A DNA stretch of 64,000 nt from an uncultured Clostridia bacterium (GCA_934476455.1 CAKSNY010000002.1:10689-74688), one strand, 5' to 3'; positions 5,396 through 62,976 are shown, counted from the stretch's first letter. The notes: generated from the letters alone by a model not told the origin. A program made the numbers and translations.

Positions 5396-5768
5396 GGTTA
5401 TAAGCAGCCTGAACGGTCGCGGCAGCGTATAAGCTGATGAGGAAAGTCCGAGCTACGCAGGACAGGATGCCGGAGAAATCCCGGTGAAGGCGACTTTAAG
5501 GAAAGTGCAACAGAAATAAACCGCCGCACCTTGTGCGGTAAGGGTGGAAAGGCGGGGTAAGAGCCCACCGACATTGCGGTAACGCAGTGTGCCATGTAAA
5601 CCCCATCCGTAGCAACGCCGACAGGATTGGCTTGTCCGGCCTATAATCCGAAGGGCGGCTGGAGCTGTGCAGAGATGCACAGCGTAGACAGATGACCGTT
5701 TCGGGGGTAAGGTGCAGAAAACATCAAGCCCCTATGACAGAACTCGGCTTACAGGGCAGCTTATAACA
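5396..5768 (+). ncRNA. rnpB: RNase P RNA (bacterial)
   Basis: universal P4 strands GAGGAAAGTCCGAGC (5'-side) and ACAGAACTCGGCTTACAG (3'-side); P1 pairing between gttataagcagcctg (5397-5411) and cagggcagcttataac (5752-5767). Confidence 0.85.
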
Positions 5769-5938: not shown

Positions 5939-7039
5939 ATGAAAAGGATTATTTCCTTTTTTGCAATTTTTATATTTATTTTTGGAGTAAATGCTTTTGC
6001 GTATGAGGATACGTTTGTTTCTCTTTCGGTAAACGGTATTTCGCAGGCACCGGACGGAAGCGTTTTTATACGCGACGGTATAACATATGCCGACGCCCGC
6101 GCCCTTTCGGAGGCTATGAACTATAGCTTTAAGGAATATTCAACGCATGACAGCGCGCTGATAAACAGCGGCAACTTGTCTGTGTGCATCACGCCCGAAA
6201 CAGATTATATAACGGTTGCAGACCTTACGGGAACTTCTATTTACGAATATGTTTTTCATAAGCTTTCGGCGCCGTGCCTTTATGCAAACGACAAATTTTA
6301 CATACCTGTGCGCGACTTTGCAAAGATTTTTAACTACTCGCTTAATTTCAGCCAGGAGCTTTTGACGGTATATCTTGACCGCAGCCAAAAGACATTTACC
6401 GCCGCACCTGTGGAGGATATTATAGGAGAGGCGCAGACGGAGGCATTGTTTATATTCGAGGGCAGCCAGCTGCCGGACGGGCATACGTACTTTTTCCAAA
6501 ACCAGGCGGAATTTGCACTGCCGAATTTTGGAAGCGGATATTGCTGGGCGTGTTCGTATGCAATGCTTTTGTCAAACGTTACCTTCTCGCGCATAACGCC
6601 TGCCGATGTTGCACAGATAAACCTGCGCCGTACAAAGAGCGGGGCGTATTGCTACCACTATGATATTATTTCGGAATACAATGTAAGTTTTGTTTCGGCG
6701 CTGCCGGAAAGCAGCCGCTATTACGGCGGGCGCGATATGGTGTCGGGCGGAACGTTTATAAAAAACCCCGAAAAAAGCGATACCGTTGTAATTGCCGCTC
6801 TCAGAGAGGCGCTGTCGCTGCACCCCGAGGGGATAATGGTGCGTTATGCGGGCTATCCGCATACAATGGTTGCGGTGGGCTTTGACCACGATAAAATAAT
6901 ATTTTACGACCCCGCGCCGACATCTTCTTCCGAGTACAGCGAAACGGGAAGATATATGGGCGTAGGGTTTGAGGAAACCTGCGTCGGCAAAAAAGGTTTT
7001 TCACTGTCTGATGTTACGTTTATACAGGCGATAAAATAG
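5939..7039 (+). CDS. secreted protein: signal peptide, copper-amine-oxidase-N-like stalk domains, C-terminal C39-like (BtrH_N-type) cysteine peptidase domain
   Basis: N-terminal signal MKRIISFFAIFIFIFGVNAFA; two stalk-like repeats; Cys motif GYCWACSYAMLLS and His motif HTMVAVGFDHD. Confidence 0.5.
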   Translation: MKRIISFFAIFIFIFGVNAFAYEDTFVSLSVNGISQAPDGSVFIRDGITYADARALSEAMNYSFKEYSTHDSALINSGNLSVCITPETDYITVADLTGTSIYEYVFHKLSAPCLYANDKFYIPVRDFAKIFNYSLNFSQELLTVYLDRSQKTFTAAPVEDIIGEAQTEALFIFEGSQLPDGHTYFFQNQAEFALPNFGSGYCWACSYAMLLSNVTFSRITPADVAQINLRRTKSGAYCYHYDIISEYNVSFVSALPESSRYYGGRDMVSGGTFIKNPEKSDTVVIAALREALSLHPEGIMVRYAGYPHTMVAVGFDHDKIIFYDPAPTSSSEYSETGRYMGVGFEETCVGKKGFSLSDVTFIQAIK

Positions 7040-7056
7040 TTTTTGGAGATGATTGT

Positions 7057-8082
7057 ATGAGTATTGAAAGAAAGGCGTTCGGAACGCTTGACAACAAAGA
7101 TATTTATTTATTTGTGCTTGATAACGGCTGCGGGCTTAGCGCCGAAATTATAAACTACGGCGGAATTGTGCGCGCGCTTACGTTTAAAGGGACGGATGTT
7201 GTACTCGGGCGCGACACACTGGAGGAGTATCTTGAAAATAACGGCTGCTTCGGCGCGCTTATCGGCAGAAATTCAAACAGAATAGCGGGAGCGTCGTTTG
7301 TTTTAAACGGAAAAAAATATGCGCTGGCGGTAAACAACATAAAGGCAAACCTGCACGGCGGCAATGTGGGCTTTAATAAAAAAGTGTGGGATGCGTCCGC
7401 GCTTGACGGGGACGAACCCTCGCTTGTGCTTACACTTAAAAGCCCGGACGGGGAGGAGGGCTTCCCCGGGAATGCCGACATTAAGGTTACATATACGCTT
7501 ACGCGTGACAATGCGCTTAAAATACATTATGAAGGCGTTTGCGACCAAGACAGTATAATAAATCTTACAAACCACACGTATTTTAACCTTAACGGGCATA
7601 AAAGCGGCACAGTAGACAATCATACGCTTAAATTGCTCAGTGATTTTTACACGCCGAACACACCCGAATGTTACCCCACGGGAGAAGTTCTTAAGACAGA
7701 GGGTACGCCGTTTGATTTGCGCCAGGGAAAGCTGCTTGGCGATGTATTTAATTCGGACTGTGAGCAGATAAGGCTGTTTAACGGGTTTGACCATAATTTT
7801 GCGCTCAGCGGGTTCGGTATGCGTTTGTGCGGAACTCTTAAGGGCGATAAAACAGGTATAGAAATGGAGCTTTTGACAGACCGCCCCGCAGTACAGATTT
7901 ACACGGGCAACAGCATACAGCAGGGAAGAATTTGCAAAAACGGGGCGGTGTACCCCGTACACGGCGGCGTTTGCCTTGAAACACAGGTGTTCCCGAATTT
8001 TACGGCAAACTCGCATTTCCCGGGCGGATTTGTAAAAAGCGGTGAAAAGTACGATACAGTGACGGAATATAGGTTTAAGTAA
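7057..8082 (+). CDS. galM: aldose 1-epimerase (galactose mutarotase)
   Basis: 341 aa with conserved mutarotase motifs (NLHGG, NHTYFNL, ETQ...PN). Confidence 0.85.
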   Translation: MSIERKAFGTLDNKDIYLFVLDNGCGLSAEIINYGGIVRALTFKGTDVVLGRDTLEEYLENNGCFGALIGRNSNRIAGASFVLNGKKYALAVNNIKANLHGGNVGFNKKVWDASALDGDEPSLVLTLKSPDGEEGFPGNADIKVTYTLTRDNALKIHYEGVCDQDSIINLTNHTYFNLNGHKSGTVDNHTLKLLSDFYTPNTPECYPTGEVLKTEGTPFDLRQGKLLGDVFNSDCEQIRLFNGFDHNFALSGFGMRLCGTLKGDKTGIEMELLTDRPAVQIYTGNSIQQGRICKNGAVYPVHGGVCLETQVFPNFTANSHFPGGFVKSGEKYDTVTEYRFK

Positions 8083-8091
8083 ATAAGCATA

Positions 8092-8135
8092 AAAAACAGC
8101 CGCAACAAAATCATTTTGTTGCGGCTGTTTTTGTG
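8092..8135. terminator. bidirectional intrinsic terminator between convergent galM and glnA
   Basis: hairpin cagccgcaacaaaa-tca-ttttgttgcggctg flanked by A-run and T-run. Confidence 0.55.
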
Positions 8136-8160
8136 CTTATTTGAACGATATACAGGCGAT

Positions 8161-10263
8161 TTATTTTACACTGTAGAGAATGTCGCTGTAATCCGGGTAC
8201 GGCCAAAAGTCGCGGCGCGTAATTGTTTCAAGCTCGTCCGCAGCATAGCGGAGAACGTTCATATCGTTAAGCACGGTATTGCAGAAAAACTGAGCCTCTT
8301 TAAGTGCGTCGCCCGAAAGCCCGGCAGCGGTAACAACAGATTCTTCAAGGCGGGCTGTGCGTTCGGACATTTCGTTAAGAAGCAGCGAGGCTCTGCGTGC
8401 GGTTTTTTCTTCGTACTCGCACGGAATATCCTTTATTATTGCCCTGCGTGAGGAAACGGTGTCGGTAAGGCTTTTAATAAACAACGAAACTGCGGGCATA
8501 ATATCCTTTTTTGCCATTTCAATCATCGTGAGAGCCTCTATATTTACAACCTTGCAGTAGTTTTCAAGCATTATTTCATAGCGCGAGTGTATCTCAGCCT
8601 CGGAATAAATGCGGTGTGTTCTGAAAAGCTCTATATTTTTTTCATCGAGCATATGCGGCAGGCAGTCGGGTGTTGTCGGAAGATTTGCAAGACCGCGTTT
8701 TTTAGCTTCTGCAAGCCATTTGTCATCATAGCCGTTGCCGTTAAATATAATGCTCTTATGTTCTTTGATTGTGCGCACTATAAGGTCATGCAGCGCGCCT
8801 TCAAAGTTCGGGGCGGACTCAAGCTCGTCTGCAAAAAGGCGCAGGCTTTCCGCAACAGCGGCATTTATTACAACATTTGCGTCGGATATTGACGCCGTAG
8901 AGCCAAGCATACGAAATTCAAACTTGTTTCCCGTAAAGGCAAACGGGCTTGTGCGGTTTCGGTCGGTGGTATCTTTCGGAAAACGCGGAATTACGTGTAC
9001 GCCTATTTTCATCTGTACCTTTTCCTTTGCGTCATATGCACGGTCGGTTTCTATGGCTTCTAAAATCTCGCTTAATTCATCGCCCAAAAACATAGAAACA
9101 ACGGCGGGCGGCGCTTCATTAGCGCCAAGGCGGTGGTCGTTTCCGGCGCTTGCAACAGATATGCGCAAAAGCTCCTGATAATCGTCAACAGCCTTTATAA
9201 CCGCGCATAGAAACAGCAAAAACTGTGCGTTTTCGTACGGAGTTTCGCCCGGGTCAAGCAAATTCTTACCTGTGTTTGTGGACATAGACCAGTTGTTATG
9301 CTTGCCGCTGCCGTTTACCCCCTCAAAGGGTTTTTCGTGAAGAAGGCACACCATACCATGGCGCCTGGCAACCTTTTGCATCATTTCCATTGTAAGCTGG
9401 TTATGGTCGGTTGCTATGTTTGTTGTTGAAAATATGGGTGCAAGCTCATGCTGTGCGGGCGCTACCTCGTTATGCTCCGTCTTTGCAAGCACGCCGAGCG
9501 CCCACAGCTCCTCGTCAAGATCTTTCATAAAGTCGGCAACGCGTGATTTTATGCTGCCGTAGTAATGGTCCTCCATCTCCTGCCCTTTGGGCGGCTTTGC
9601 GCCAAAGAGGGTGCGCCCGGCAGAGATTAGGTCGGGGCGTTTTTGATACACGCTTTCATCTATAAGAAAGTATTCCTGTTCGGGACCTACGGTGGTTTTT
9701 ACGCTTGTAACCTCGGTATTGCCGAAAAGCCGCAAAATACGAACCGCCTGGCGGTCTATTGCCTCCATAGAACGAAGAAGAGGCGTTTTTTTATCAAGCG
9801 CTTCGCCGCCGTAGGCACAAAACGCCGTAGGAATACAAAGTGTTTTTCCTTTTATAAAGGCATAACTTGTGGGGTCCCACGCGGTGTAGCCGCGTGCCTC
9901 AAACGTTGCCCTAAGCCCGCCCGACGGAAAAGAAGACGCGTCCGACTCTCCCTGAACAAGTTCCTTGCCGGAAAATTCCATAATAACGCTTCCGTCGTCA
10001 TTGGGCGAGATAAAGCTGTCGTGCTTTTCTGCCGTAATACCCGTCATAGGCTGGAACCAATGCGTGTAATGCGTTGCGCCTTTTTCAATAGCCCAGTCGC
10101 GCATGGAATTGGCGACTACGTTTGCAACGTTTATATCAAGGCGCTTGCCATCCTTTATGGCTTTTTGCATCGCCTTGTAGATGTCCTTGGGCAAACGCTC
10201 TCTCATCACGCTTGCATTAAATACTTTACAGCCGAAAAGCTCCGTCACAGTACTCATACGCAT
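8161..10263 (-). CDS. glnA: glutamine synthetase type III (GlnN-like)
   Basis: ~700-aa GS with N-terminus [27 protein letters not shown] typical of GSIII; start set at MRMS (10263) with GGTTGTG RBS; ORF track N-extension rejected. Confidence 0.85.
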
Positions 10264-10379
10264 CACAACCTTTGCATTTAATAAAAAAGCAAAGGTACTG
10301 TCCGGCACCCTTGCCTTCCATACGATTATAACATTGTAAAGGCACTTTGTCAAACACTTACTGCCTGCTGCGTAAAAAA

Positions 10380-11312
10380 TCAGTCCAATATTTCAAGCGA
10401 ATATTTTTTTTCAAAGCCGTCCGTGGTTAAAACGGTGCGCTTATTCGTAATTATAAGCGCGTCGGTATCGGGAAACGCCCTGCAAAGCTCCAGCCCCTTT
10501 TCGCCCGTTACAAAAATTGCGGTCGACAGGCAGTCTGCCGCGGCGGAGGATGGGGAAATAACCGTTACGGAGGAAACAGAGCCGCCGCTTTGCGCACATT
10601 CGCCCGTTTTGGGGTCTAATATGTGGTGATAACGCACTCCGCCGTATTCAAAAAATCTCTGGTACGAGCCGCTTGTTACCGCGCTTTTGTCTTTTAGGGT
10701 AAAGCGGCAGAAAAGCTTGTCGGGGCTTTGCGGGTCACGCACGCCGACGCGTGCCGTGCCAAGCACATAAACATTGCCGCCGAGATCCAGTATAGCTTTT
10801 TTTACGCCGCTTTTATAAAGCGCGTCTGCGGCTTTGTCTGCAATATATCCCTTTGCGCACGCGCCGAAGTCAAGCTGTGTGCCGCCGAGTGACAAGGGGC
10901 TTAGGCTTATTTTATCAAACCCCGTTTTGTTAAGCGCCGATGCAATTTCCTCCTTTGTCGGCGGAACGGTGCGCTCTTTTATGTTCCACAGGTCGGAAAG
11001 GGCGCCAAGGGTACAATCAAACGCACCGCCCGTTATATTATACATTTTTTCGCAAAGGCTTAAAAGCGCGCGGATGTCCTCTCCCGCGGTTTTCTTTGCG
11101 CCCGAATTTATTAAGTACAGCTCGCTTTCGGGGTCGGTACGGCTGAAAATTTTTTCGTATTTTCTGCACAGCTCATATGTTTTTTCGCAAGCGTCCTTCG
11201 GAGCGGTGACGGTAATTTGCGTATCCAGCGCAAAAAAACGACGCGTTTCGTCTTTCCTTGCGCAGGCGCAAAAAATAAGCGGTATCAATATAAAAAAAAG
11301 AAACTTTTTCAC
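10380..11312 (-). CDS. apbE: FAD:protein FMN transferase (ApbE family) lipoprotein
   Basis: lipoprotein signal + ApbE motifs ([19 protein letters not shown]). Confidence 0.85.
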
Positions 11313-11315
11313 AAA

Positions 11316-11879
11316 TCAACCCTCCGCAGCATTCGGATATAAAAGCTTGTAAATCCTTATGTAACGCTTGGTTTTTTGAACGTGTCTTTTTGTTTCGCCG
11401 AATGGGATAATATAAGGCTCTATGCCGTCTTTTGAAAGGCTTTCGTCTTTAAGCCATTTGTCAACGTTTGAAGAACCTGCGTTGTATGCCGCCACCGCGT
11501 TTGTAACGCTTCCGTTATATTTGTCAAGCAGATATGAAAGATACCACACGCCGGCGTTGATATTGTCCTCAGGCGACAAAATGTCGGCATTTTCGCTATT
11601 CAGCTTCTTGCAGCAGTGTAAAAAGGTTTCCTCCGTAAGCTGCATAAGCCCCTTTGCGCCGGCACAGCTTACGGCATTTTGGTTAAAATTGCTTTCCGCT
11701 TTTATAAGCGCCAGAACAAGGTATATATCGGTATTGTTGTTTGTGCAGGCTTTCCTTATAAGCGCGCCGTATTTTACGGGAAAAACGGTGCGGCACACGG
11801 AAAGTGACGCAAAAATCATTGCTGCGGCCGTAATTATGCATATAATAACCTTAAGTAAAACCACGGATTTTTTATTCAT
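11316..11879 (-). CDS. lytic transglycosylase (SLT domain), membrane-anchored
   Basis: catalytic motif AESNFNQNAVSCAGAKGLMQL and AYNAG. Confidence 0.8.
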   Translation of the reverse strand: MNKKSVVLLKVIICIITAAAMIFASLSVCRTVFPVKYGALIRKACTNNNTDIYLVLALIKAESNFNQNAVSCAGAKGLMQLTEETFLHCCKKLNSENADILSPEDNINAGVWYLSYLLDKYNGSVTNAVAAYNAGSSNVDKWLKDESLSKDGIEPYIIPFGETKRHVQKTKRYIRIYKLLYPNAAEG

Positions 11880-12453
11880 TCTTAACCTCCGTTATATAGG
11901 CATACGCTTTGTCAAGCTCGGCGTAAAGCTCTTTTAAGCCGTGTTCGTTTAAAATATGTATTGCTTTTTTTGAATACGGCGTTTGCGCGTTTATTCTGGA
12001 AAGCGCGCGCTGCGCACTTATTCCGTCGCGCCGCATAATTCTTTCAAGGCGTGTTTCTTTGCTTGCTTCTATCACTATTACGGCATCGCATTTTTTGTAA
12101 AGCCCGCTCGACTCTATCTCGGAGCCGTCCGCTATACATATTTCGCGGTCGGACCTTTGGTAAAGCTCTGAAATAACGTTTACCACATACGGGTGGATTA
12201 TTTTGTTAAGCACTGCAAGCTTTCCCTTGTCGGAAAACACAATCGTGCCTAAAGCACGGCGGTCAATTTCACCGCCGCATAAAACGCCGTCCCCGAAAAA
12301 ATCGGTAATCTGTTTTTTTATATCTTTGTCAAAAAGGGCGCGGTGGGCTATGGCGTCACAGTCAAAACAGGCACAGCCGAGCTTTTCAAAATACTCTGCC
12401 GCGGCGCTTTTTCCGCTGCCGCTAAGCCCCGTAAGCCCTATCAGCTTTTTCAT
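11872..12453 (-). CDS. coaE: dephospho-CoA kinase
   Basis: Walker A GLTGLSGSGKS, CoaE family length 193 aa. Confidence 0.85.
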   Translation of the reverse strand: MKKLIGLTGLSGSGKSAAAEYFEKLGCACFDCDAIAHRALFDKDIKKQITDFFGDGVLCGGEIDRRALGTIVFSDKGKLAVLNKIIHPYVVNVISELYQRSDREICIADGSEIESSGLYKKCDAVIVIEASKETRLERIMRRDGISAQRALSRINAQTPYSKKAIHILNEHGLKELYAELDKAYAYITEVKNE

Positions 12454-14979: not shown

Positions 14980-16332
14980 CTAATATATTCTTACGGCGTC
15001 CTTGCTGCCTTTTTTTATTACAAATATTTTCCCGTCGGGCGAGGCAATGTCGCTTCCTGTATAAATCCACGGGAAAAGCTTTGTAAGCTTTTCGTTTTCA
15101 TAGCAAAAGTAGCCGTCGTTTGCGGCGGAAACCTCATACGTTTCGATAGGGGGGATGTCGTTATTTGCCCATTCGCACTTAAGGTAAAGCTTGTTTTGGG
15201 CTGCGCCGATAAGCTTCATCGAGCCGTAATCGGGGAATAAATCGTTAATACACATAACGCTGCCATCGGCAGAAATTTTGTAAAGCTTTTCTCCGCTTGT
15301 TGCCATTCCTTTCCAATGTATGTAGCGGATTGCATTTACGTATATATCATCTCCGAGCGCGGTACAGTTTGTAAAATAGGCGTCCTCCTGCACAAAAACG
15401 TATTTGCCGCCGAGGATTAAAAAGCCGTAGCGCTCAAACGGGGTGTACGGCGGGGGGATTTCATCTGGTGTAGATGTATATATAACAACGTTAAGAAATT
15501 TTATGCCGTTCATTTCTTCAACCGAGGCATATCCCGATAAATCCGACGCGCTGCCGCCGTTTTCAAGGTGCTTTACCGTGCCGAGCTTTACCCCGCCCAC
15601 AAGGTAGGAGGTGCCGTCAAACGTAACGTCCTCCGATTTTTCATATTTTGGGTATGTCGTTTGATAAAGCGCATCATAAGAGGCAAAGCCCTCGCTCTCA
15701 AGGGTGGTTTTTGTAAGCTGCCCGGTTTTATAATTAAGCCTGAAATACTCGTCCTCGTAATCGGACGGCGCCTGACGGTGTAAAAGCGCATTTTCGCTGT
15801 CCAGCGAAAAAAGGCGGCTTAGAAAATCTTTAGTATCTTCACGGTAGGTTAAAAGGGTAAAGGTGTTGTTTTCCCACGAAACCGTCCAGTTAAACTCCTC
15901 GGCGGCAAAACGCCACGTCATGGGAAAATATGTTACGCCGCGGAAATTTAAGAGCGGGTACTCCTCTTTTTGATTGTCGATAAGCTTTCCGTTTATATAT
16001 ATGGGGTAAGAGGGAAGAGATGCGTTATACGCAGCAGCGTTTTTCTGCGTGTCATACACGGGAAGACTGCCGGTTGAACGGTTGTAGGCAATATAAAGCT
16101 CGCTTCCCGTCCAGGTGGAGGTAAGGTTAAGCGCGCGGCAGTAATCGTACGTCATAGGAAAATACGTTATGTCTTTATACGAAATAAGCGGATATTGTGA
16201 GTCGGCATAATACACATCGCAGTCTCCGATTATACATTTGTAGGTTGGTATAACCACCCTGACGTTTTGTGCATTTGCACTGCCTGTATACAGCGCCAAA
16301 GCAAAAAGCATTGCCACAAGAATACGTTTCAT
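14980..16332 (-). CDS. secreted hypothetical protein with repeated copper-amine-oxidase-N-like (stalk) domains
   Basis: signal peptide MKRILVAMLFALALYTGSANA; repeats ITYFPMTYDYCRALNL / VTYFPMTWRFAAEEFN; GGGAGG RBS before ATG 16332. Confidence 0.5.
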   Translation of the reverse strand: MKRILVAMLFALALYTGSANAQNVRVVIPTYKCIIGDCDVYYADSQYPLISYKDITYFPMTYDYCRALNLTSTWTGSELYIAYNRSTGSLPVYDTQKNAAAYNASLPSYPIYINGKLIDNQKEEYPLLNFRGVTYFPMTWRFAAEEFNWTVSWENNTFTLLTYREDTKDFLSRLFSLDSENALLHRQAPSDYEDEYFRLNYKTGQLTKTTLESEGFASYDALYQTTYPKYEKSEDVTFDGTSYLVGGVKLGTVKHLENGGSASDLSGYASVEEMNGIKFLNVVIYTSTPDEIPPPYTPFERYGFLILGGKYVFVQEDAYFTNCTALGDDIYVNAIRYIHWKGMATSGEKLYKISADGSVMCINDLFPDYGSMKLIGAAQNKLYLKCEWANNDIPPIETYEVSAANDGYFCYENEKLTKLFPWIYTGSDIASPDGKIFVIKKGSKDAVRIY

Positions 16333-16436
16333 AAAATCGCCTCCCATTCTTGTTTTTAATTATCGCATAAACAGACGGAAAAATCAAGGCATATGTGAAT
16401 ATACGTGCATAAAATACAAAAAATATAAAAAAATAC

Positions 16437-26491: not shown

Positions 26492-27205
26492 ATGAGATTG
26501 CAAAAATATATTGCGCTGTGCGGTGTTTCTTCGCGCCGTAAGGCTGAAGAAATTATACAAAGCGGGCGCGTGCGCGTAAACGGCGAGATTATAAATTTTA
26601 TGGGATTTACCGTAGACGAGAAAAAGGATGTTGTAGAGCTTGATGCGCGCGTTATAAAACCGGAACAGAAAAAGTACTACATTATGCTTAATAAGCCGAA
26701 AAACTACGTAACAACCGTGTCGGACGATTTGGGCCGCCCCACCGTTATGCAGCTGACAAGCGAAATAGGCGCAAGAATATACCCCGTCGGCAGACTTGAT
26801 TTTGACACAACAGGGCTTTTGATTATGACAAACGACGGCGATTTTGCAAATAAGCTGACGCATCCGTCGCATATCGTGAACAAAGTTTACATAGCGCGTG
26901 TGGACAAAATGCCCGAAGGCACACAGCTTGAAATTTTAAAAAACGGCGTAGAACTTGACGACGGAAAAACCGCGCCCGCCGCAGCAGAGGTTTTGAAAAG
27001 ACCAAAACGCGGGATTGAGGTTAAAATAACCATACACGAAGGCAAAAACCGTCAGGTAAGACGAATGCTTGAAAAGGTGGGGCTTAACGTAATTTCTTTA
27101 AAACGCATAGCGGTAGGCTCTCTTGCGCTGGGCAATCTTCCCGAGGGCAGATGGCGCCACCTTTCCGAAGCCGAGGTTAATAAGCTGAAAGGAAGAAGAA
27201 AATGA
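26492..27205 (+). CDS. rRNA pseudouridine synthase (RsuA/RluB family) with S4 domain
   Basis: S4 N-terminus (LQKYIALCGVSSRRKAEEII), catalytic motif PVGRLDFDTTGLLIMTNDG. Confidence 0.8.
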   Translation: MRLQKYIALCGVSSRRKAEEIIQSGRVRVNGEIINFMGFTVDEKKDVVELDARVIKPEQKKYYIMLNKPKNYVTTVSDDLGRPTVMQLTSEIGARIYPVGRLDFDTTGLLIMTNDGDFANKLTHPSHIVNKVYIARVDKMPEGTQLEILKNGVELDDGKTAPAAAEVLKRPKRGIEVKITIHEGKNRQVRRMLEKVGLNVISLKRIAVGSLALGNLPEGRWRHLSEAEVNKLKGRRK

Positions 27206-27552
27206 TACGCGTAAATATAGTGGACGATGAGAGGATAATATCCTCGCTGATGGAAATAAAAAATGAAAATACCTGTCTTGCATGGGCGCAGGAGGGCGCA
27301 CAGCCGCGCGGCTGGTGCGCCTTTACTGCGGGCGGAGAGCTTATTTGTGCCGACGCCCGGGACGAATATTTTGAGCTTGTTATACGTGCGGCGCTGAACA
27401 AGCTGGATTTAAGCGGCGTAAAATACGCCGTGTGCAAAAACAAAACGCTTGCGGACAGGCTTATTCCCTTCGGCTTTCAAAAGTGCACAGGCGGTGTGAA
27501 AATTGATATTCCCGCTTTTTTTAAGCCGTGCGGCGGCTGCACAAAAAATTAA
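27202..27552 (+). CDS. hypothetical protein (116 aa) with Cys-rich C-terminus, translationally coupled to pseudouridine synthase
   Basis: ATGA overlap with upstream stop; C-terminal KPCGGCTKN; no family recognised. Confidence 0.35.
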   Translation: MIRVNIVDDERIISSLMEIKNENTCLAWAQEGAQPRGWCAFTAGGELICADARDEYFELVIRAALNKLDLSGVKYAVCKNKTLADRLIPFGFQKCTGGVKIDIPAFFKPCGGCTKN

Positions 27553-27571
27553 AATATTTTTAAAATTGATA

Positions 27572-27600
27572 TTGAAAAATCGAATTATCGGATGTATAAT
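27572..27600 (+). promoter_or_regulatory. promoter of decarboxylase operon (-35 TTGAAA, 17 nt, extended -10 TGtATAAT)
   Basis: hexamers at 27572-27577 and 27595-27600. Confidence 0.45.
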
Positions 27601-27658
27601 TATGATATAATGGGAAAAATTTGAATGTTGTTTTTTTAACAGGCAGGAGGAACTGAGT

Positions 27659-29137
27659 ATGAATTCCATTGAAAAGGTTTCCGAGCTTATGTCAAAGAAA
27701 GCAGAAATTGCTCTCGGCGGCGGCAAGGAAAAGCTTGAAAAGCAAAAACAGGGCGGCTTAATGACTTCCCGCGAGAGGATTGCAGCGCTTTTGGACGAGG
27801 GAAGCTTTGTCGAAATCGGCGCATTCGTAAGCGCGCGCGCGGAAGAAACCGCGGCAGACGGCGTTTCTACCGGCTATGGTACGGTTGACGGCAGGCTTGT
27901 GTATGTGTACTCGCAGGACAATACGGTTTGCGGCGGCGCTATGGGTGAAAACTACGGCAAAAAAATCGTCAACATATTTGAAATGGCGATGAAGATGGGT
28001 GCCCCCGTTGTAGGTATGCTCGATTCGGACGGTGTACGCCTTAAGGAGGGCGTGTATGCGCAGTCCGCTATGGGCGCTGTGTTAAGCGCGGCAGCTAAGG
28101 CAAGCGGCATTATTCCGAACATAAGCATTGTTTTCGGAAACTGTGCCGGCGGCAGTGCGATAGGCGCTGCAATGAGCGATTTCGTTATCGTAAGCGAGAA
28201 AAAGGGCAGGGTTTTTGTAAACGGGCCCTCTGTCATAGAGGCAACCACCGGTAAGAAAGCTTTGTCGGACGCTTCCTACAGCGCATCGGTAAGCGGTGCG
28301 GCACACCTTACGGGTGAGGACGACGCACAGTGCATAGAACTTGCACGCTTGCTTATATCCTACATTCCGTCAAACAATCTTTGCGATGCGTTTGACCTTG
28401 AAACGGCGGATGATGTAAACAGAACAAGCGAGACGCTTCAAAATGCGGACGCTGTTGAAGATGTAAGAATAATTATATCTGAAATTGCGGACGATAAGGC
28501 ATTTTTTGAAATACATAAGGACTATGCCGACGAGGTAAGCGTGGGTTTTGTACGCCTTAACGGCGCAAGCGTGGGCGTTGCTGCAACAAACGGAAAGCCC
28601 CTGGGCGGCTGCGCAATGGAAAAAACGGCACGCTTTGTTCGTTTTTGCGATTGCTTTAATATTCCCGTGCTTACATTTACAAACACAGACGGCTTTGCGG
28701 TAAATGCGGACGAGGAAAAGTACGGTCTTGCAAGAAAGGGCGCAGAGCTTTCGTATGCCTTTACGGGGGCAACGGTTCCCAAGGTAAACGTAATAGTTTC
28801 AAAGGCTTACGGTACGGCATATACAATATTTAACTCGAAACAGACAGGCGCGGATATTGTAATGGCATATCCCTTTGCACAGGCTGCACCGCTTGACCCT
28901 GCGGCAGGCGTCGGTATGCTTTATTCGGACAGGCTTAAAAACGGCGAGAGCCGCGACGCGCTTATGACAGAGTATGTAGAAAAGGAAGCAAATATTTACA
29001 GCGCTGCAAAGGCGGGCTATGTGGACGATATAATAGACCCCGCACAGACGCGGCAGAGGGTAATTGCGGCATTTGAAATGCTTGCGGGCAAGCGCGTTTT
29101 GTCAATCCCGCGCAAGCACGACAATATGCCCTTTTAA
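27659..29137 (+). CDS. acyl-CoA carboxyltransferase, 12S type (methylmalonyl-CoA decarboxylase alpha / propionyl-CoA carboxylase beta family)
   Basis: GGGKEKLEKQKQGGLMTSRERIAALLDEGSFVE and VVGMLDSDGVRL motifs of the AccD/PccB/MmdA family. Confidence 0.8.
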   Translation: MNSIEKVSELMSKKAEIALGGGKEKLEKQKQGGLMTSRERIAALLDEGSFVEIGAFVSARAEETAADGVSTGYGTVDGRLVYVYSQDNTVCGGAMGENYGKKIVNIFEMAMKMGAPVVGMLDSDGVRLKEGVYAQSAMGAVLSAAAKASGIIPNISIVFGNCAGGSAIGAAMSDFVIVSEKKGRVFVNGPSVIEATTGKKALSDASYSASVSGAAHLTGEDDAQCIELARLLISYIPSNNLCDAFDLETADDVNRTSETLQNADAVEDVRIIISEIADDKAFFEIHKDYADEVSVGFVRLNGASVGVAATNGKPLGGCAMEKTARFVRFCDCFNIPVLTFTNTDGFAVNADEEKYGLARKGAELSYAFTGATVPKVNVIVSKAYGTAYTIFNSKQTGADIVMAYPFAQAAPLDPAAGVGMLYSDRLKNGESRDALMTEYVEKEANIYSAAKAGYVDDIIDPAQTRQRVIAAFEMLAGKRVLSIPRKHDNMPF

Positions 29138-29140
29138 GAG

Positions 29141-29509
29141 GTGATAGATATGTTTGATACAAAGGATCTTATTTTTGAGGGTCTTGCTTACACGGTTATG
29201 GGTATTACCATAGTGTTTTTAATGCTTGTAATCATTATGTACGTTATAAAGGCAATGGCGCTTTTCAGCAATGAAAAGGAAAGCGCACAAAAAGCAGCGC
29301 CCGCACCCGCGCCGGCGCCGGCGCCGCAGGCGGAAAATACCGCAGTGCAGAAAACCGATGATTCGGAGCTTGTTGCGGTAATAACGGCTGCCGTATGTGC
29401 GGCTATGGGGAAAAGCGCTTCGGAGCTTGTTGTGCGTTCGTACAAAAAGCTTTCACAAAATGCGTGGAACAAAGCAGGGCGCAGAGAAACACTTGATAAC
29501 AGATTTTAA
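29141..29509 (+). CDS. Na+-transporting decarboxylase gamma subunit (OadG-like) with Ala-Pro linker
   Basis: N-terminal TM helix (LAYTVMGITIVFLMLVIIMYVI) followed by APAPAPAPAP linker, size 122 aa, operon position. Confidence 0.55.
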   Translation: MIDMFDTKDLIFEGLAYTVMGITIVFLMLVIIMYVIKAMALFSNEKESAQKAAPAPAPAPAPQAENTAVQKTDDSELVAVITAAVCAAMGKSASELVVRSYKKLSQNAWNKAGRRETLDNRF

Positions 29510-29523
29510 GGAGGATATATGTC

Positions 29524-29904
29524 ATGAGAAAATTTATTGTAAATGTAAACGGTAATTCGTATGAGGTTGAGGTTGACGAGGTTGCGGCAAACGGCTCAGC
29601 CGCAGCAGCACCGAAAGCAGCACCGGCACCCGCAGCGGCTGCTCCCGCACAAAAGGCTGCCCCCGCTCCCGCGCCCGCGGCAGCACCTGCCGGCGGCACA
29701 CCCGTTAAGGCGCCTATGCCGGGAAATGTTGTTGATATAAAGGTAGCAAACGGCGCTTCCGTAAAGAAGGGTGACGTTGTGGTTATACTCGAAGCTATGA
29801 AGATGGAAAACGAAATCTTCGCTCCGTGCGACGGTGTTGCAACGGTTGTTGCATCTAAGGGCGCAACGGTAAACAGCGGCGATGTACTTATCACTCTTTC
29901 CTGA
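29524..29904 (+). CDS. biotin carboxyl carrier subunit (MmdC/GcdC/1.3S-like)
   Basis: biotinyl motif EAMKMENEI near C-terminus, Ala/Pro-rich linker, 126 aa. Confidence 0.8.
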   Translation: MRKFIVNVNGNSYEVEVDEVAANGSAAAAPKAAPAPAAAAPAQKAAPAPAPAAAPAGGTPVKAPMPGNVVDIKVANGASVKKGDVVVILEAMKMENEIFAPCDGVATVVASKGATVNSGDVLITLS

Positions 29905-29938
29905 TTAACCATAACGTTTTGAATTGGAGTGATTTAAG

Positions 29939-31174
29939 TTGTTGGAAAAAATAACCAGTGGATTTTTAAAATTCTTTGCCAACACCGGTATAACGGAAAT
30001 GTTTTTCGGCAGCGGTACGGTATGGTGGAAAACGGCTATAATGATTACAATCGCGTGCGTGCTTTTGTACCTTGCCATTGTAAAGCAGTTTGAGCCGCTG
30101 CTTCTGCTTCCGATAGCATTCGGTATGCTGTTGGCAAACCTTCCCTTAGGCGGCGTAATGCACCCCGAGCTGTTTATGGGAAAAGAGATAGACTACGGCA
30201 GGGTGCTTCACGAGGGCGGACTGTTGGATATGCTGTACTTAGGCGTTAAGCTTGGCATATACCCGCCGCTTATATTCCTCGGAATAGGATGTATGACGGA
30301 TTTCGGCCCGCTTATAGCAAATCCCAAAAGCATACTTTTGGGCGCTGCCGCACAGCTTGGCGTGTTCATTACATTTATGGGCGCGGTTACGCTCGGCGCG
30401 TTTAAAATCGGCGGATTCGGCGCAGACGGCACAATAGAAACCATCTTCCGCGAGGCAGCCGCAATAGGCATTATCGGCGGTGCGGACGGTCCTACGGCTA
30501 TATACGTAACAAAAACGCTTGCCCCCACGCTTTTAAGTGCGATTGCGATTGCGGCGTATTCATATATGGCGCTTATACCTATTATTCAGCCGCCGATTAT
30601 GAAAGCGCTTACTACGCCTGAGGAACGCAAAATAGTGATGGAGCAGCTTCGCCCCGTTACGCAGAAAGAAAAAATACTTTTTCCTATAATAGTTACGATT
30701 GTTGTAACGCTTCTCGTTCCCGATGCGGCACCGCTTGTAGGTATGCTTATGCTCGGAAATCTGTTTAAGGAAAGCGGCGTCGTTGACAGAATTTGCAAAG
30801 CTGCCCAAAACGAGTTGATGAATATTGTTACAATATTCCTCGGAATGACGGTAGGCGCAACGGCAACCGCAGATAATTTCCTTACCCCGAAAACAATACT
30901 TATTATATGTCTGGGTCTTATAGCGTTTTCCGTAAGTACAGCAGGCGGCGTAATTTTCGGACGTATTATGTGCAAGGTGTCCGGCGGCAAGGTTAATCCC
31001 CTTATCGGCAGCGCCGGCGTAAGCGCAGTTCCCATGGCAGCGCGTGTGTCGCAGGTTGTCGGGCAGAAAGAAAACCCCTCAAACTTTTTGCTTATGCACG
31101 CTATGGGACCGAACGTTGCCGGCGTTATCGGCAGCGCCGTTGCGGCAGGCGTGTTCCTGGCACTGTTTAAGTAA
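29939..31174 (+). CDS. oadB: Na+-translocating decarboxylase beta subunit (OadB/MmdB/GcdB family)
   Basis: high identity to OadB signatures ([71 protein letters not shown]). Confidence 0.85.
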
Positions 31175-31192
31175 ATAGAAAGGAAGATTACA

Positions 31193-32599
31193 ATGGAGAA
31201 TAAAAAACCCGTTAAAATAACCGAAACCGTTCTTCGTGACGCGCACCAGTCGTTGATTGCAACGCGTATGACGACGGAGGAAATCCTCGGCGCTGTTGAA
31301 ATGCTTGATAAGGTCGGCTACAATGCGCTTGAGGCATGGGGCGGCGCAACATTTGACAGCTGCCTGCGCTTCTTAAAGGAAGACCCGTGGGAAAGGCTGC
31401 GCAAGATAAAGGCAAAAGCAAAAAACACACCTATACAAATGCTTTTCCGCGGTCAGAATATTTTGGGCTACCGCCATTACGGCGACGATGTGGTTGAATA
31501 TTTTGTTCAGAAATCGATTGCAAACGGCGTTGATATTATAAGAATTTTCGATGCACTTAACGATGTGCGTAACCTTAAAACCGCAATTAACGCAACAATA
31601 AAGGAAAAAGGACACGTTCAGGCGGCAATATCCTATACGATAAGCCCCGTTCATACAAACGAAACCTTTATCAAGCTTGCAAAGCAGCTTGAAGAGATGG
31701 GCGCAAGCTCTATCTGCATAAAGGATATGGCAGGTCTTTTGACGCCGTACAATGCGTACGAGCTTGTAACGGGAATGAAAAAGGCGGTTAAAGTTCCGAT
31801 AGAGCTTCACACGCATTATACAAGCGGTGTTGCGTCTATGACATATCTTAAGGCAATCGAGGCAGGCGTGGATATAATAGACTGTGCAATATCGCCCTTT
31901 GCAATGGGGACAAGCCAGCCCGCTACAGAACCTATGGTTGCAACGCTTCAAAATACACCTTACGATACAGGGCTTGACCTCGGGCTGCTCAGTGAAATTG
32001 CAGATTATTTCCGCCCGATACGTGAGAAGTATATTGCAAACGGAACGCTTAACCCGAAGGCGCTTGCGGTGGATGTAAACACGCTTAAATATCAGGTTCC
32101 CGGCGGAATGTTGTCAAACCTTATATCACAGCTTAAGCAGCTTGGTGCAGAGGATAAATTCCAGGAGGTTCTGCGCGAGGTTCCCCGTGTGCGTGAGGAT
32201 GCAGGCTTCCCGCCGCTTGTAACGCCGTCAAGCCAGATTGTCGGAACGCAGGCAGTGTTTAACGTTGTTTTGGGCGAACGCTACAAAAACGTTACAAAGG
32301 AATTCCGCGGTCTTATCCGCGGAGAGTACGGTAAAACCCCCGTTGACATAAAGCCTGATTTTGCAAAGAAGATTTTAGGCGACGAGGAGCGCATAACCTG
32401 CCGTCCGGCGGATAATATCCCCAATGAGCTTGACAAGTTCAGAAGCGAAATAAGCGAATATATCGAACAGGACGAGGATGTATTAAGCTACGCACTGTTC
32501 GGACAGGTTGCCACAAAGTTTTTTGAGTACCGCCAGGGTCAGAAATATAAAATAGACCCCGAGCTCGCGGACAAGGAAAACAAGGTTCATCCTATGTAA
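31193..32599 (+). CDS. oxaloacetate decarboxylase alpha / pyruvate carboxylase subunit B-like 5S carboxyltransferase (no biotinyl domain)
   Basis: HMGL-like TIM barrel with VKITETVLRDAHQSL, LHTHYTSG motifs plus conserved C-terminal carboxyltransferase domain; 468 aa lacks C-terminal biotin domain. Confidence 0.8.
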   Translation: MENKKPVKITETVLRDAHQSLIATRMTTEEILGAVEMLDKVGYNALEAWGGATFDSCLRFLKEDPWERLRKIKAKAKNTPIQMLFRGQNILGYRHYGDDVVEYFVQKSIANGVDIIRIFDALNDVRNLKTAINATIKEKGHVQAAISYTISPVHTNETFIKLAKQLEEMGASSICIKDMAGLLTPYNAYELVTGMKKAVKVPIELHTHYTSGVASMTYLKAIEAGVDIIDCAISPFAMGTSQPATEPMVATLQNTPYDTGLDLGLLSEIADYFRPIREKYIANGTLNPKALAVDVNTLKYQVPGGMLSNLISQLKQLGAEDKFQEVLREVPRVREDAGFPPLVTPSSQIVGTQAVFNVVLGERYKNVTKEFRGLIRGEYGKTPVDIKPDFAKKILGDEERITCRPADNIPNELDKFRSEISEYIEQDEDVLSYALFGQVATKFFEYRQGQKYKIDPELADKENKVHPM

Positions 32600-32606
32600 A
32601 AATTAC

Positions 32607-32652
32607 AGCCCCCTCGGCGCAGATTACTGTCGAGGGGGCTTGGTATTTTATT
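32607..32652 (+). terminator. operon terminator
   Basis: agccccctcg...cgagggggct hairpin followed by U-rich tggtattttattt. Confidence 0.5.
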
Positions 32653-32670
32653 TAAGAGGGGTGGCAGGAA

Positions 32671-33462
32671 ATGAAGAGCGAGGAAATAAAGCTGAAAGCA
32701 GACGAAAGCTATATGAATGTAATTCGTTTCGGAAACGGCAGCAAAAATTTAATTATTATATCCGGCGTCAGCCTTACGGGTCTGGAGGGGCAGGGGGAAG
32801 CAGTAGCCGAAGCATACAGCACTTTTTGCGGGGAATATACCGTCTGTCTGTTTGAACGAAAAAAGGTTCTGAGGGAAAAATACAAAATTTTTGATATGGC
32901 AGAGGATGTTAGAAAGGCTATGGATATGCTTTCGATAGACAAAGCGTTTGTTTACGGTGTTTCGCAGGGCGGTATGATAGCACAGGTGCTTGCAATAAAT
33001 TATCCCGAAAGAGTGGAAAAAATGGCGCTTTGTTCGACAATGTGCCGCCCCACCGAAACGCTGAAAGGCGTGGCGGGAAGATGGATGCGCCTCGCCGCAG
33101 AGCATAACGTTACGGAGCTTAACAAATGCTTTTTTAAGGATGTTTATTCCGCTTCCTTTTTGGAAAGCGTCAAAGAAAAGCTGCCGATGCTTGAAAAAGA
33201 GGGAACAGCGCAGGACTGCGAACGTTTTTGTATTTTGGTTAAGGCTCTTTACGATTTTGACGTGTATGACAAGCTCAGCCAGATAAAATGCCCCGTGTTT
33301 GTCATAGGGGATGAGGACGACTGTACGATAGGCGCGGAAGGCTCGTATGAAATAATAAAAAAGCTTAATTGCAGCAGATATATGTACAGCGGCTACGGAC
33401 ACGCGGTGTATGACGAAGCCCCCGATATTAAAGAAAAAATAAAAACATTTTTTGAAATGTAA
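32671..33462 (+). CDS. alpha/beta-fold hydrolase
   Basis: nucleophile elbow GVSQGG, 263 aa. Confidence 0.7.
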   Translation: MKSEEIKLKADESYMNVIRFGNGSKNLIIISGVSLTGLEGQGEAVAEAYSTFCGEYTVCLFERKKVLREKYKIFDMAEDVRKAMDMLSIDKAFVYGVSQGGMIAQVLAINYPERVEKMALCSTMCRPTETLKGVAGRWMRLAAEHNVTELNKCFFKDVYSASFLESVKEKLPMLEKEGTAQDCERFCILVKALYDFDVYDKLSQIKCPVFVIGDEDDCTIGAEGSYEIIKKLNCSRYMYSGYGHAVYDEAPDIKEKIKTFFEM

Positions 33463-33870: not shown

Positions 33871-33919
33871 TGTAAATAAAAAAGCAGCACCAACCTAAAG
33901 GTTGATACTGCTTTTTTGG
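33871..33919. repeat. 49-nt perfect direct repeat, copy 2 (overlaps tRNA-Pro CCA end)
   Basis: identical to 33458-33506. Confidence 0.7.
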
Positions 33920-33993
33920 TCGGAGTGGCGGGACTTGAACCCGCGGCCTCTTGGTCCCGAACCAAGCACGCTACCAAACTGCGCTACACCCCG
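33917..33993 (-). tRNA. tRNA-Pro (anticodon CGG)
   Basis: reverse complement gives CGGGGTGTAGCGCAGTTTGGTAGCGTGCTTGGTTCGGGACCAAGAGGCCGCGGGTTCAAGTCCCGCCACTCCGACCA; anticodon loop TTCGGGA, T-loop GGTTCAAGTCC, encoded CCA. Confidence 0.85.
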
Positions 33994-59179: not shown

Positions 59180-59200
59180 AGCTTTGAAAGGATGGTTTAG

Positions 59201-60268: not shown

Positions 60269-60939
60269 AAAGAATAAATGTTTTCTGCGGGCATTACGGC
60301 AGCGGAAAAACAAACATCGCGGTAAATTACGCGCTGATGCTTAAAAAGCGCTTTGAAAGGGTTGCCATAGCAGACCTTGACATTGTAAACCCGTATTTCA
60401 GAACAAAGGACGCGGCGGATATTCTTAAGCAAAACAGTATCAGGGTTATATCATCGCCGTATGCAAACTCAAACGTAGATACGCCCGCACTTCCGGCAGA
60501 GATTTACTCCGTCACGGACGAGGGCGACCTGCACGCCGTTATAGACGTCGGCGGTGACGACCGCGGGGCACTTGCCCTCGGTCGATTTAAGGAAAACATA
60601 GAGAGAGCGGGCGGCTGCAATCTGTTTTTTGTTATAAATATGTACAGACCCTTAACAAAAACACCCGAGGAAGCCTTTTGTGTGCTGAAAGAAATCGAAG
60701 CGGCGTGCCGTATGCGCTTTGATTATATAATAAACAACTCAAACCTGGGCGAGGCAACCACCGCGCACGACATAGAACGTTCGTTTGAATATGCGCGTGC
60801 GGTGGAAAGCCTTACGGGGCTTAAAACGGCATTTACAACAGTTAAAACAGAGCTTTACCCGAAAATAAAAGGCAAAGCGGAAAATATTATACCAATTAAG
60901 CTTTTTGTAAGACAAAGCTGGGAAGAAAGGAATGAGTAA
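60250..60939 (+). CDS. P-loop NTPase of unknown function (Walker A GHYGSGKT, DVGGDD switch-like motif)
   Basis: Walker A near N-terminus, hhhhDxxG motif VIDVGGDD; 19-nt overlap with ilvE; embedded between ilvE and oxidoreductase genes. Confidence 0.5.
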   Translation: MERSSLKRINVFCGHYGSGKTNIAVNYALMLKKRFERVAIADLDIVNPYFRTKDAADILKQNSIRVISSPYANSNVDTPALPAEIYSVTDEGDLHAVIDVGGDDRGALALGRFKENIERAGGCNLFFVINMYRPLTKTPEEAFCVLKEIEAACRMRFDYIINNSNLGEATTAHDIERSFEYARAVESLTGLKTAFTTVKTELYPKIKGKAENIIPIKLFVRQSWEERNE

Positions 60940-60940
60940 T

Positions 60941-61144: not shown

Positions 61145-61161
61145 GGAAAGGATTGAAAAAT

Positions 61162-62966: not shown

Positions 62967-62976
62967 GGTGCGCAGA

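Follow-up and report, generated by a model that had tools for sequence, protein, structure and literature searches.

Within a 64,000-nucleotide stretch of DNA from an uncultured Clostridia bacterium (GCA_934476455.1 CAKSNY010000002.1:10689-74688; the whole stretch is called the window hereafter, and positions are counted from its first letter), we examined a five-gene cluster that joins two carboxyltransferases, one biotin carrier and one membrane pump module. The five genes probably form a single operon, whose product would be a biotin-dependent Na+-translocating decarboxylase bound to the membrane and of the split-subunit clostridial type, and an oxaloacetate-driven Na+ pump is likely to be the function under selection in this organism. 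The most informative feature, as judged from sequence comparisons, appears to be an evolutionary break confined to one subunit, with the rest of the pump operon frozen. The acyl-CoA-type carboxyltransferase encoded by the first gene (hereafter CT) has been heavily remodelled in this gut lineage, whereas OadA and OadB are almost unchanged. What seems to be new here is that the CT has drifted far from all characterised relatives; the five-gene layout itself is already common.

An earlier annotation made from this DNA alone (the sequence-only reading) had proposed the same inventory of genes. All five are indeed + strand open reading frames (ORFs), and their Pfam and NCBIfam assignments agree. 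Lengths are in amino acids.

27659-29137, + strand: CT gene of the PccB/MmdA/12S family, 492 amino acids (PF01039, TIGR01117, predicted fold)
29141-29509, + strand: gene for an OadG-family anchor, 122 amino acids from a GTG start (PF04277, TIGR01195)
29524-29904, + strand: gene for a free-standing biotin carrier, 126 amino acids (PF00364)
29939-31174, + strand: OadB gene, 411 amino acids, TTG start (PF03977, TIGR01109)
31193-32599, + strand: OadA/PycB/5S-type carboxyltransferase gene without a biotin domain, 468 amino acids (NF008985)

The last four genes look like a complete and intact set of parts for an oxaloacetate-driven Na+ pump in split-subunit format, with a short OadA and a separate carrier. 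The OadA-like protein carries HMGL-like and PYC_OADA domains (PF00682 and PF02436) and no biotinyl domain, and its score of 792 bits exceeds the curated NCBIfam cut-off for the short form of OadA (NF008985; 718 bits). Residues D16, K177, H206 and H208 align with D17, K178, H207 and H209 of Vibrio cholerae OadA, which we take, from the 2NX9 structure, to be metal ligands. The protein scores 518 bits against V. cholerae OadA, 517 against a PycB and 476 against a 5S subunit, and its 570 bits against the 5S equivalog model NF008984 are below the cut-off of 827. OadA, PycB and 5S proteins share one common half-reaction.

In the carrier, an N-terminal assembly segment is followed by an Ala-Pro linker and then by a biotinyl domain, whose EAMKME motif includes Lys93 (codon 29800-29802). 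The alignment of the carrier to full-length OadA (NF010643) covers residues 481-594 of the latter, and the matches of the carrier in the PDB include the 1.3S carrier of transcarboxylase. This alignment suggests that the carrier is the detached C-terminal part of a classical OadA, with the AMKM motif. The OadG-like protein (PF04277, 70.5 bits; TIGR01195, 60.5 bits above a cut-off of 36) has an N-terminal transmembrane helix, an Ala-Pro linker (AAPAPAPAPAP) and a conserved C-terminal tail; Ala-Pro linkers had been claimed for both the gamma subunit and the carrier, and both translations contain them. Gene calls in four related loci (L087-L090) give 119 amino acids from the ATG equivalent to 29150, which is likely to be the true start in the window as well.

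OadB matches PF03977 with 526 bits and TIGR01109 with 508 bits, well above the cut-off of 191. When it is aligned to Salmonella OadB (6IVA), residues E40, D203, Y229, R304, N311, N373, G377, S382 and N412 are all kept, and mutagenesis has shown that Na+ binding, decarboxylation or folding depends on these nine residues (PMC7274780). None of the known essential residues has been lost from OadA, OadB or the carrier, and an oxaloacetate-driven Na+ pump is therefore the best-supported core function of the operon.

The CT tells a different story. The label 'MmdA/PccB-type' that it had been given holds for fold and family: PF01039 is matched end to end with 381 bits, and an AlphaFold model (mean predicted local distance difference test score, pLDDT, 89.9) superimposes on PccB (1XNV), transcarboxylase 12S (1ON3), AccD5 (2A7S) and a Thermotoga CT (1VRG) with template modelling (TM) scores of 0.92-0.95, so the two-domain crotonase-like fold is predicted to be retained. 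Beyond fold and family, the label says too little, since the protein is a strongly derived member. Against the MmdA model TIGR01117 it reaches 484 bits; related CTs of 516 amino acids and the CT of a locus without the beta subunit (L010) reach 889-943 bits, a Bacteroidota Mmd-type CT reaches 824, and all of these are below the cut-off of 999. Homologue searches place the window protein in a discrete group of CTs with 483-503 amino acids and 55-99% identity to it, after which identity falls sharply to 46-48% for the 516-amino-acid type. The latter is highly conserved, with ~80% identity across more than 100 clusters.

The divergence is specific to the CT, because OadB and OadA are far closer than the CT in the same pairs of loci. 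Between the window and a related locus (L001), identity is 64% for the CT, 86% for OadB and 90% for OadA; between the window and loci with a 516-amino-acid CT, the corresponding values are 41-46%, 69-75% and 66-76%. Among the 516-amino-acid loci themselves, all three proteins diverge alike (62-79%). A similar result is obtained from near-invariant alignment columns, defined on 83 bacterial and archaeal reference CTs by an invariance of at least 95%. The window CT departs from consensus at 64 of 172 such columns, compared with a reference mean of 2.05; as the reference set was picked by similarity to the query family, such departures mark a distinct subfamily and are no proof of inactivity. Members of the window clade have 57-68 changed columns, five-gene loci with the 516-amino-acid CT have 0-6, and a second gut locus (L059) has 48. 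For OadB, the count is 1 of 99 in the window (0-1 in its clade), and for OadA it is 4 of 146 (3-5 in the clade).

Many of the changes fall in familiar motifs. In the window CT, GPCAGGAVY has become GNCAGGSAI, KAYGGAY has become KAYGTAY, ANQP has become ATNG, and PGFLPGxxQE (generally PGxxPGxxQE) has become DGFAVNADEE. The LGG motif is deleted, and five deletions together remove ~24 residues. Oxyanion hole 1 is kept (G164-G165, corresponding to PccB G182-G183), whereas oxyanion hole 2, on the biotin side, has T386-A387 in place of PccB G419-A420. We found no characterised enzyme with Thr at the PccB G419 position. Catalysis by the CT is nevertheless conceivable, because the characterised enzymes AccD4 and MCC beta function with Gly/Ala swaps at oxyanion-hole positions. 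The sequence-only reading had not noticed that the CT of this lineage has lost about one third of the near-invariant residues of its family, a loss that makes it unsafe to take CT activity as given.

The gene is nonetheless maintained. The CT ORF is intact in 97 cluster representatives, and comparison of the window with its closest distinct strain (L089) reveals 39 synonymous and 12 non-synonymous differences, giving a ratio of non-synonymous to synonymous rates (dN/dS) of 0.085 that resembles those of neighbouring housekeeping genes. The same comparison yields 36 synonymous and 0 non-synonymous differences for OadA, and 19 and 3 for OadB. The CT is therefore under purifying selection, and we ruled out a pseudogene on the basis of the intact ORF, the low dN/dS and the confidently predicted fold.

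Variation within the clade is more ambiguous. At changed positions that are invariant in 80 other CTs, the consensus residue now has a frequency of 0.67 within the clade, compared with 0.74 overall, and these positions are thus as variable as the clade average or more so. The first residue of hole 2 is T in 49, S in 25, G in 20 and A in 3 of the 97 representatives, and the second Gly of hole 1 is G in 74, S in 19 and A in 3. By comparison, a new residue has become fixed at each of seven other positions, where at least 95% of the clade agree (Q135, A170, S173, G183, S349, E352 and G417). The signal appears to be a mix of relaxation and re-specification.

These patterns bear directly on the possibility that the CT is a scaffold with little or no catalysis, forming a hexameric core like that of transcarboxylase 12S and organising OadA and the carrier on OadB and OadG, in which case the complex would be a plain oxaloacetate decarboxylase (OAD) pump. 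The variability of formerly invariant positions, including those in the oxyanion holes, is what such a role would produce, and loss of LGG and replacement of PGxxPGxxQE in a protein that keeps its fold, its length and a low dN/dS is the pattern expected of structural retention. However, oxyanion holes use backbone amides, which tempers the weight of side-chain changes there, as does the tolerance of Ala in AccD4 and MCC beta. The seven newly fixed positions also look more like re-specification than decay, and the need for a scaffold is not obvious, given that Firmicute OAD complexes such as OadA/B/D/H of Enterococcus faecalis reportedly work without such a CT. Taken together, a mainly structural CT is possible but somewhat unlikely.

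We favour a two-part explanation, whose physical assembly, substrates and direction of flux we infer from the sequence. The OadA-like subunit would transfer the carboxyl group of oxaloacetate onto the biotin of the separate 126-amino-acid carrier, and OadB would decarboxylate the resulting carboxybiotin and export Na+. The OadG-like protein would anchor and stabilise the assembly, which the N-terminal segment of the carrier might also help to hold together. The 12S/PccB-family CT could use the same carrier and thereby provide a second entry or exit route for carboxybiotin via an acyl-CoA, with carboxybiotin on the common carrier serving as the intermediate that links OadA, OadB and the CT. In the canonical 516-amino-acid relatives this route is most plausibly acetyl-CoA/malonyl-CoA, by analogy with related clusters discussed below, and a complex equipped in this way would be part pump and part transcarboxylase. 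In the gut lineage, the remodelling of the CT beside an almost unchanged OadA and OadB suggests that the pump is the function under strong constraint; the CT would have been kept as a partner, either with altered catalysis or in a mainly structural role. We consider it nearly an even possibility that the CT is a catalytically altered side branch.

Several observations weigh against this explanation. We found no biochemical characterisation of any five-gene complex in the literature, and OAD activity was not detected in wild-type Clostridium thermocellum, which carries a related cluster (PMC5414155). The window encodes a complete pyruvate kinase (PF00224 and PF02887; 53528-54958, - strand), and therefore the organism has no need of an oxaloacetate route from phosphoenolpyruvate (PEP) to pyruvate; this differs from C. 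thermocellum, in which the related cluster has been proposed as a pyruvate-kinase bypass. The OadA-like protein does not appear separable by sequence into OadA, PycB or 5S, and the variability of once-invariant CT positions within the clade would fit lost catalysis as well as altered catalysis. Finally, the chemistry would run in another direction if the genome encoded a biotin carboxylase elsewhere.

A bolder version of the two-part explanation, which we regard as rather unlikely, makes the five-gene complex a membrane-anchored carboxyl-routing hybrid of transcarboxylase and Na+ pump. Carboxybiotin derived from oxaloacetate would be split between Na+ export by OadB and ATP-free carboxylation of an acyl-CoA, or biotin would be charged in reverse from the Na+ gradient, and the gut CT would have been retooled beyond acetyl-, propionyl- and methylmalonyl-CoA. 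Such retooling would explain why, under purifying selection, seven new residues have become fixed around an active site that has been remodelled.

Two other genes of the window hint at a Na+ cycle in this organism, in which a Na+ pump would have a use. The window encodes a protein of the Na+/H+ exchanger family (2715-3908, + strand) and an ApbE flavin transferase (10380-11312, - strand). ApbE is a maturation factor of Rnf/Nqr-type complexes.

The arrangement of the operon is shared widely. Our statements on its distribution rest on ten locus contexts together with the matches listed from two collection scans. The order CT-gamma-carrier-OadB-OadA was found in every relative with enough DNA to judge, amounting to 14 independent loci, and the five-gene layout is widespread in Clostridia. 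It occurs in six lineages of the derived clade (the window, L001, L004, L174, L175 and L176; 55-99% CT identity), together with a canonical 516-amino-acid CT in six others (L005, from the cultured Petroclostridium xylanilyticum, and L008, L012, L091, L092 and L093), and in a gut metagenome-assembled genome (MAG) with a second divergent CT (L059). The proposal of a single carrier and a single beta/gamma module serving both carboxyltransferases gains from this strict conservation of order; the rarity that had been implied for the layout does not survive it. Several related loci lie directly 3' of PBP5-RluB genes, and the window operon is likewise located behind rluB. Four loci with CTs of either length (L004, L176, L005 and L091) have seven or more upstream genes in common, and because this neighbourhood is common to both, the short and long CTs can be regarded as positional orthologues.

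The L059 locus (7001-12332) represents a second gut Clostridiales lineage (MGYG-HGUT-04133). Its CT carries KAYGSAY and falls at the base of the window clade in the distance tree.

Exact-sequence matches to the window come from human-gut metagenomes, for example Hadza samples, and derive from uncultured Clostridia with identical flanks. Scans of contigs with the CT alignment (genomes) or the window CT (metagenomes) returned generic PF01039 proteins at 39-45% identity and no close relatives among the matches listed. These matches provided a diverse reference set and brought the Mmd-type and beta-less architectures to light.

Conservation of the locus also speaks to a competing explanation, in which the CT would serve as beta chain in an ATP-dependent acyl-CoA carboxylase, together with a biotin carboxylase encoded elsewhere, and would have only an incidental place in the operon. 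The solved structures nearest to the CT are beta subunits of propionyl-CoA carboxylase and acetyl-CoA carboxylase, as this explanation would predict. However, the CT gene is always first and lies 3-15 nucleotides from the gamma gene in all 14 loci, across 41-99% CT identity, no biotin carboxylase gene is present in the flanks of any locus, and the operon carrier belongs with the OadA-tail/MmdC/1.3S carriers, not with those of AccB type. An ordinary carboxylase beta chain working with a separate biotin carboxylase was the outcome that the sequence-only reading named as fatal to its proposal; as far as the window and the related loci show, the CT is instead far from ordinary and locked into this operon. 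We consider an incidental carboxylase subunit very unlikely.

The sequence-only reading had itself proposed either a dual-substrate Na+ pump that uses methylmalonyl-CoA and oxaloacetate or a membrane-bound methylmalonyl-CoA:pyruvate transcarboxylase. Genes 1-4 do follow the mmdA-mmdD-mmdC-mmdB order. This classical layout, with a CT, a small gene, a carrier and OadB but no 5S gene, is present in at least 22 loci, mostly from Bacteroidota, among the 80 diverse loci listed. In addition, the best NCBIfam match is MmdA for the first gene, the OadG family ahead of MmdD for the second and MmdC for the third, and the CT fold fits 12S with TM scores of 0.93-0.94. However, the Mmd cut-offs are missed widely (484 bits against 999 for MmdA, 33.5 against 150 for MmdD NF047902, and 115 against 200 for MmdC NF047903), and the active-site motifs of the CT are remodelled. 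No methylmalonyl-CoA mutase is found among the annotated ORFs of the window, including all 13 ORFs of at least 450 amino acids, no epimerase is seen there either, and neither gene was seen in the flanks of the 14 related loci. By comparison, genuine mmd clusters of Thermoanaerobacter adjoin mutase and epimerase genes (PMC3608648). The literature on beta-less relatives favours acetyl-CoA/malonyl-CoA instead (PMC5414155, PMC7071700). Methylmalonyl-CoA is not supported as the second substrate; the reading built on it is the least supported and, in our judgement, quite improbable.

Homology does not appear to reveal the substrate of the window CT. The residue at the PccB D422 position was tried as a predictor and dropped. 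The window CT has Thr there, the 516-amino-acid type has Ile, and Mmd-type loci have D, C, I or L. This 'specificity' residue has been reported not to be decisive for substrate choice (PMC7835884).

A more serious candidate is malonyl-CoA. The main job of the complex might be ATP-independent synthesis of malonyl-CoA for fatty acids (oxaloacetate + acetyl-CoA -> pyruvate + malonyl-CoA) in bacteria that lack a biotin carboxylase, with OadB acting as an overflow or charging biotin in reverse from the Na+ gradient. According to the curated metabolic model iCth446, C. thermocellum does without a standard acetyl-CoA carboxylase, and the model assigns malonyl-CoA formation to Clo1313_1523-1526 as a putative transcarboxylase (PMC5414155). 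In Caldicellulosiruptor bescii, a cluster encoding a CT, a hypothetical protein, a carrier and an 'OAD' has a predicted FapR site and is derepressed by 3-4 log2 units together with fab genes when fapR is deleted (PMC7071700). The 516-amino-acid type also has Ile at the PccB D422 position, as does the acetyl-CoA-accepting AccB (PMC7835884). Moreover, loci that contain CT, carrier and 5S genes without OadB exist among the matches listed (L010 and L039, both from Bacillota), and in a neighbour-joining tree, which is a simple distance tree, their CTs nest among those of five-gene loci. On the basis of this literature on relatives, acetyl-CoA/malonyl-CoA would be the best-supported substrate pair for the canonical CT.

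For the window operon itself, the case is weaker. A search for the FapR operator (TTAGTACCNGGTACTAA) upstream of 13 loci gave best matches with 6-7 mismatches in all but the beta-less L039, and thus neither the window operon nor any other five-gene locus showed a FapR-like operator in its upstream region; a regulatory link between the window operon and fatty-acid synthesis was dropped for want of an operator near consensus. No fab genes occur in the flanks of any locus. In addition, the loss of many family-invariant residues from the window CT, at positions that vary within the clade, would be odd for the sole source of malonyl-CoA. Malonyl-CoA synthesis as the main task is therefore a possibility that we regard as doubtful.

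The L039 locus, from a Bacillota MAG, is a CT-carrier-5S set that lacks both beta and gamma genes. It is the only one of the 13 loci with a FapR-like site, a palindrome at 6870-6890 (TTATCACTAGGTAATAA) located ~124 nucleotides 5' of the CT gene and just 3' of a TTGACA...TATAAT promoter. This site is consistent with a role of the beta-less form in fatty-acid synthesis.

Two further sets without OadB, in a different gene order (CT-5S-carrier), were listed from a Bathyarchaeia MAG (L011) and an Anaerolineales MAG (L041). Both have Asp at the PccB D422 position, and these sets, one archaeal and one from a Chloroflexota bacterium, might encode genuine methylmalonyl-CoA:pyruvate transcarboxylases.

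The clusters of cellulolytic Clostridia (Clo1313_1523-1526, and B5X54_RS07175-07190 of C. bescii) are close relatives of the system described here, with the same CT subfamily as the 516-amino-acid type and the same order of CT, small protein, carrier and 5S genes. However, OadB appears to be missing from them, whereas that of the window is intact; the window operon also has no FapR-like site, and its CT is far more divergent. The C. thermocellum cluster (Clo1313_1523-1526 or Cthe_0699-0701) has been annotated as an oxaloacetate decarboxylase (PMC3561251, PMC8303734), and its CT protein has been observed in the membrane fraction at ~220 kDa and >880 kDa (PMC3039559).

The proposed pump has features in common with several better-known systems. 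Classical OAD pumps (Vibrio, Klebsiella and Salmonella; 2NX9, 6IVA/6IWW) share with it the 5S-type carboxyltransferase residues, the essential OadB residues, the Ala-Pro gamma anchor and the AMKM site. In the window, however, the biotin domain and association segment form a separate 126-amino-acid protein rather than the C-terminus of OadA, and an acyl-CoA-type CT heads the operon. A split OAD, OadA-OadB-OadD-OadH, is reported from the citrate locus of E. faecalis (Repizo et al. 2013). That system likewise pairs OadB and a small gamma-like subunit with a free small carrier and a short OadA that has no biotin domain. It is not known to have a counterpart of the CT gene, and no citrate lyase or transporter genes are located near the window operon.

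The methylmalonyl-CoA decarboxylases (MmdABCDE of Veillonella parvula and Propionigenium, and mmd of Bacteroidota) resemble the window in the order and families of genes 1-4 and in CT fold. The window differs in scoring far below the MmdA, MmdC and MmdD cut-offs, in a context where no mutase or epimerase was seen, in an appended 5S-type carboxyltransferase and in a derived CT. The transcarboxylase of Propionibacterium (12S/5S/1.3S; 1ON3, 1RQB, 1DCZ) draws on the same three catalytic and carrier families, and its 1.3S subunit, like the window carrier, has an N-terminal segment before an Ala-Pro linker. That complex is soluble and lacks beta and gamma subunits, whereas the window operon includes OadB and OadG genes and a remodelled 12S homologue. 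To our knowledge, every characterised biotin-dependent Na+ pump (OAD, Mmd, Gcd and Mad) has one carboxyltransferase.

An operon that hard-wires 12S-type and 5S-type carboxyltransferases to one carrier and one pump module is thus common in Clostridia, and annotations of its members vary between 'oxaloacetate decarboxylase', 'methylmalonyl-CoA decarboxylase', 'acetyl-CoA carboxylase' and 'transcarboxylase' without consistency. What these operons do bears on malonyl-CoA supply in anaerobes without a biotin carboxylase, and on the extra energy that saccharolytic Clostridia might save at the PEP-oxaloacetate-pyruvate node. The gut lineage offers a natural experiment, in which the pump parts have been frozen and the acyl-CoA CT has drifted, and it is a good place to ask whether such a CT is catalytic, re-specified or structural.

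The sequence surrounding the five genes contains the signals expected of a transcription unit:

27572-27600, + strand: sigma-70-type promoter-like site, TTGAAA-17-TATAAT, with 11 of 12 consensus matches
27603-27611, + strand: second, overlapping extended -10 element, TGATATAAT, read from the sequence
27645-27650, + strand: ribosome binding site AGGAGG, 8 nucleotides 5' of the first ATG (CT gene), read from the sequence
32607-32652, + strand: intrinsic terminator, with a 13-base-pair stem at 32607-32640 followed by a T-rich tail

The promoter and terminator that had been assigned as borders of the operon stand as the best promoter-like site and the strongest hairpin of the region. In a scan of 27100-33000 (5.9 kb), the promoter-like site ranks first, and it falls inside the 106-nucleotide gap 3' of an upstream 116-amino-acid ORF. 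The terminator hairpin, with 9 G-C pairs in its stem, is by far the strongest candidate in the same region, and no + strand terminator of similar strength was found inside the operon. The intergenic gaps are 3, 14, 34 and 18 nucleotides, and we infer that the five genes are co-transcribed. Related loci have GGAGG at the same spacing 5' of the CT gene. An Rfam scan revealed no riboswitch or leader 5' of the operon, and a search for shared motifs in the upstream regions recovered AT-rich promoter and ribosome binding site signals only.

In the window, the operon is flanked upstream by genes for S20, an M14 peptidase, RluB and the 116-amino-acid ORF, and downstream by an alpha/beta hydrolase gene and the dcw cluster. 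The 116-amino-acid ORF (27202-27552, + strand) has no Pfam match, and its start overlaps the rluB stop codon (ATGA). An ORF of 113 amino acids occupies the same place in L175 and is 43% identical (E 2e-33), and L091 has an unrelated 135-amino-acid ORF there that has only a Cys-rich C-terminal end in common with the window protein.

Further features were noted elsewhere in the window. RNase P RNA class A is located at 5401-5767 (+ strand, 271 bits) and a single tRNA-Pro(CGG) at 33917-33993 (- strand), with no further Rfam family at threshold. A type III glutamine synthetase of 730 amino acids (8161-10353, - strand; GSIII_N, Gln-synt_C and a C-terminal domain) adjoins the genes for ApbE and DNA polymerase I, and directly 3' of polA is a 455-amino-acid ORF (14980-16347, - strand) with no Pfam match at E <= 0.001. 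Lastly, an unusual co-directional cluster at 55350-63519 (+ strand) encodes a LeuA-like protein (HMGL-like and LeuA_dimer domains, 457 amino acids), a class IV aminotransferase, an 819-amino-acid protein in which a xylose-isomerase-like TIM barrel is fused to an AMP-binding (adenylating) enzyme, and subunits of a 2-oxoacid:ferredoxin oxidoreductase (POR_N/PFOR_II).

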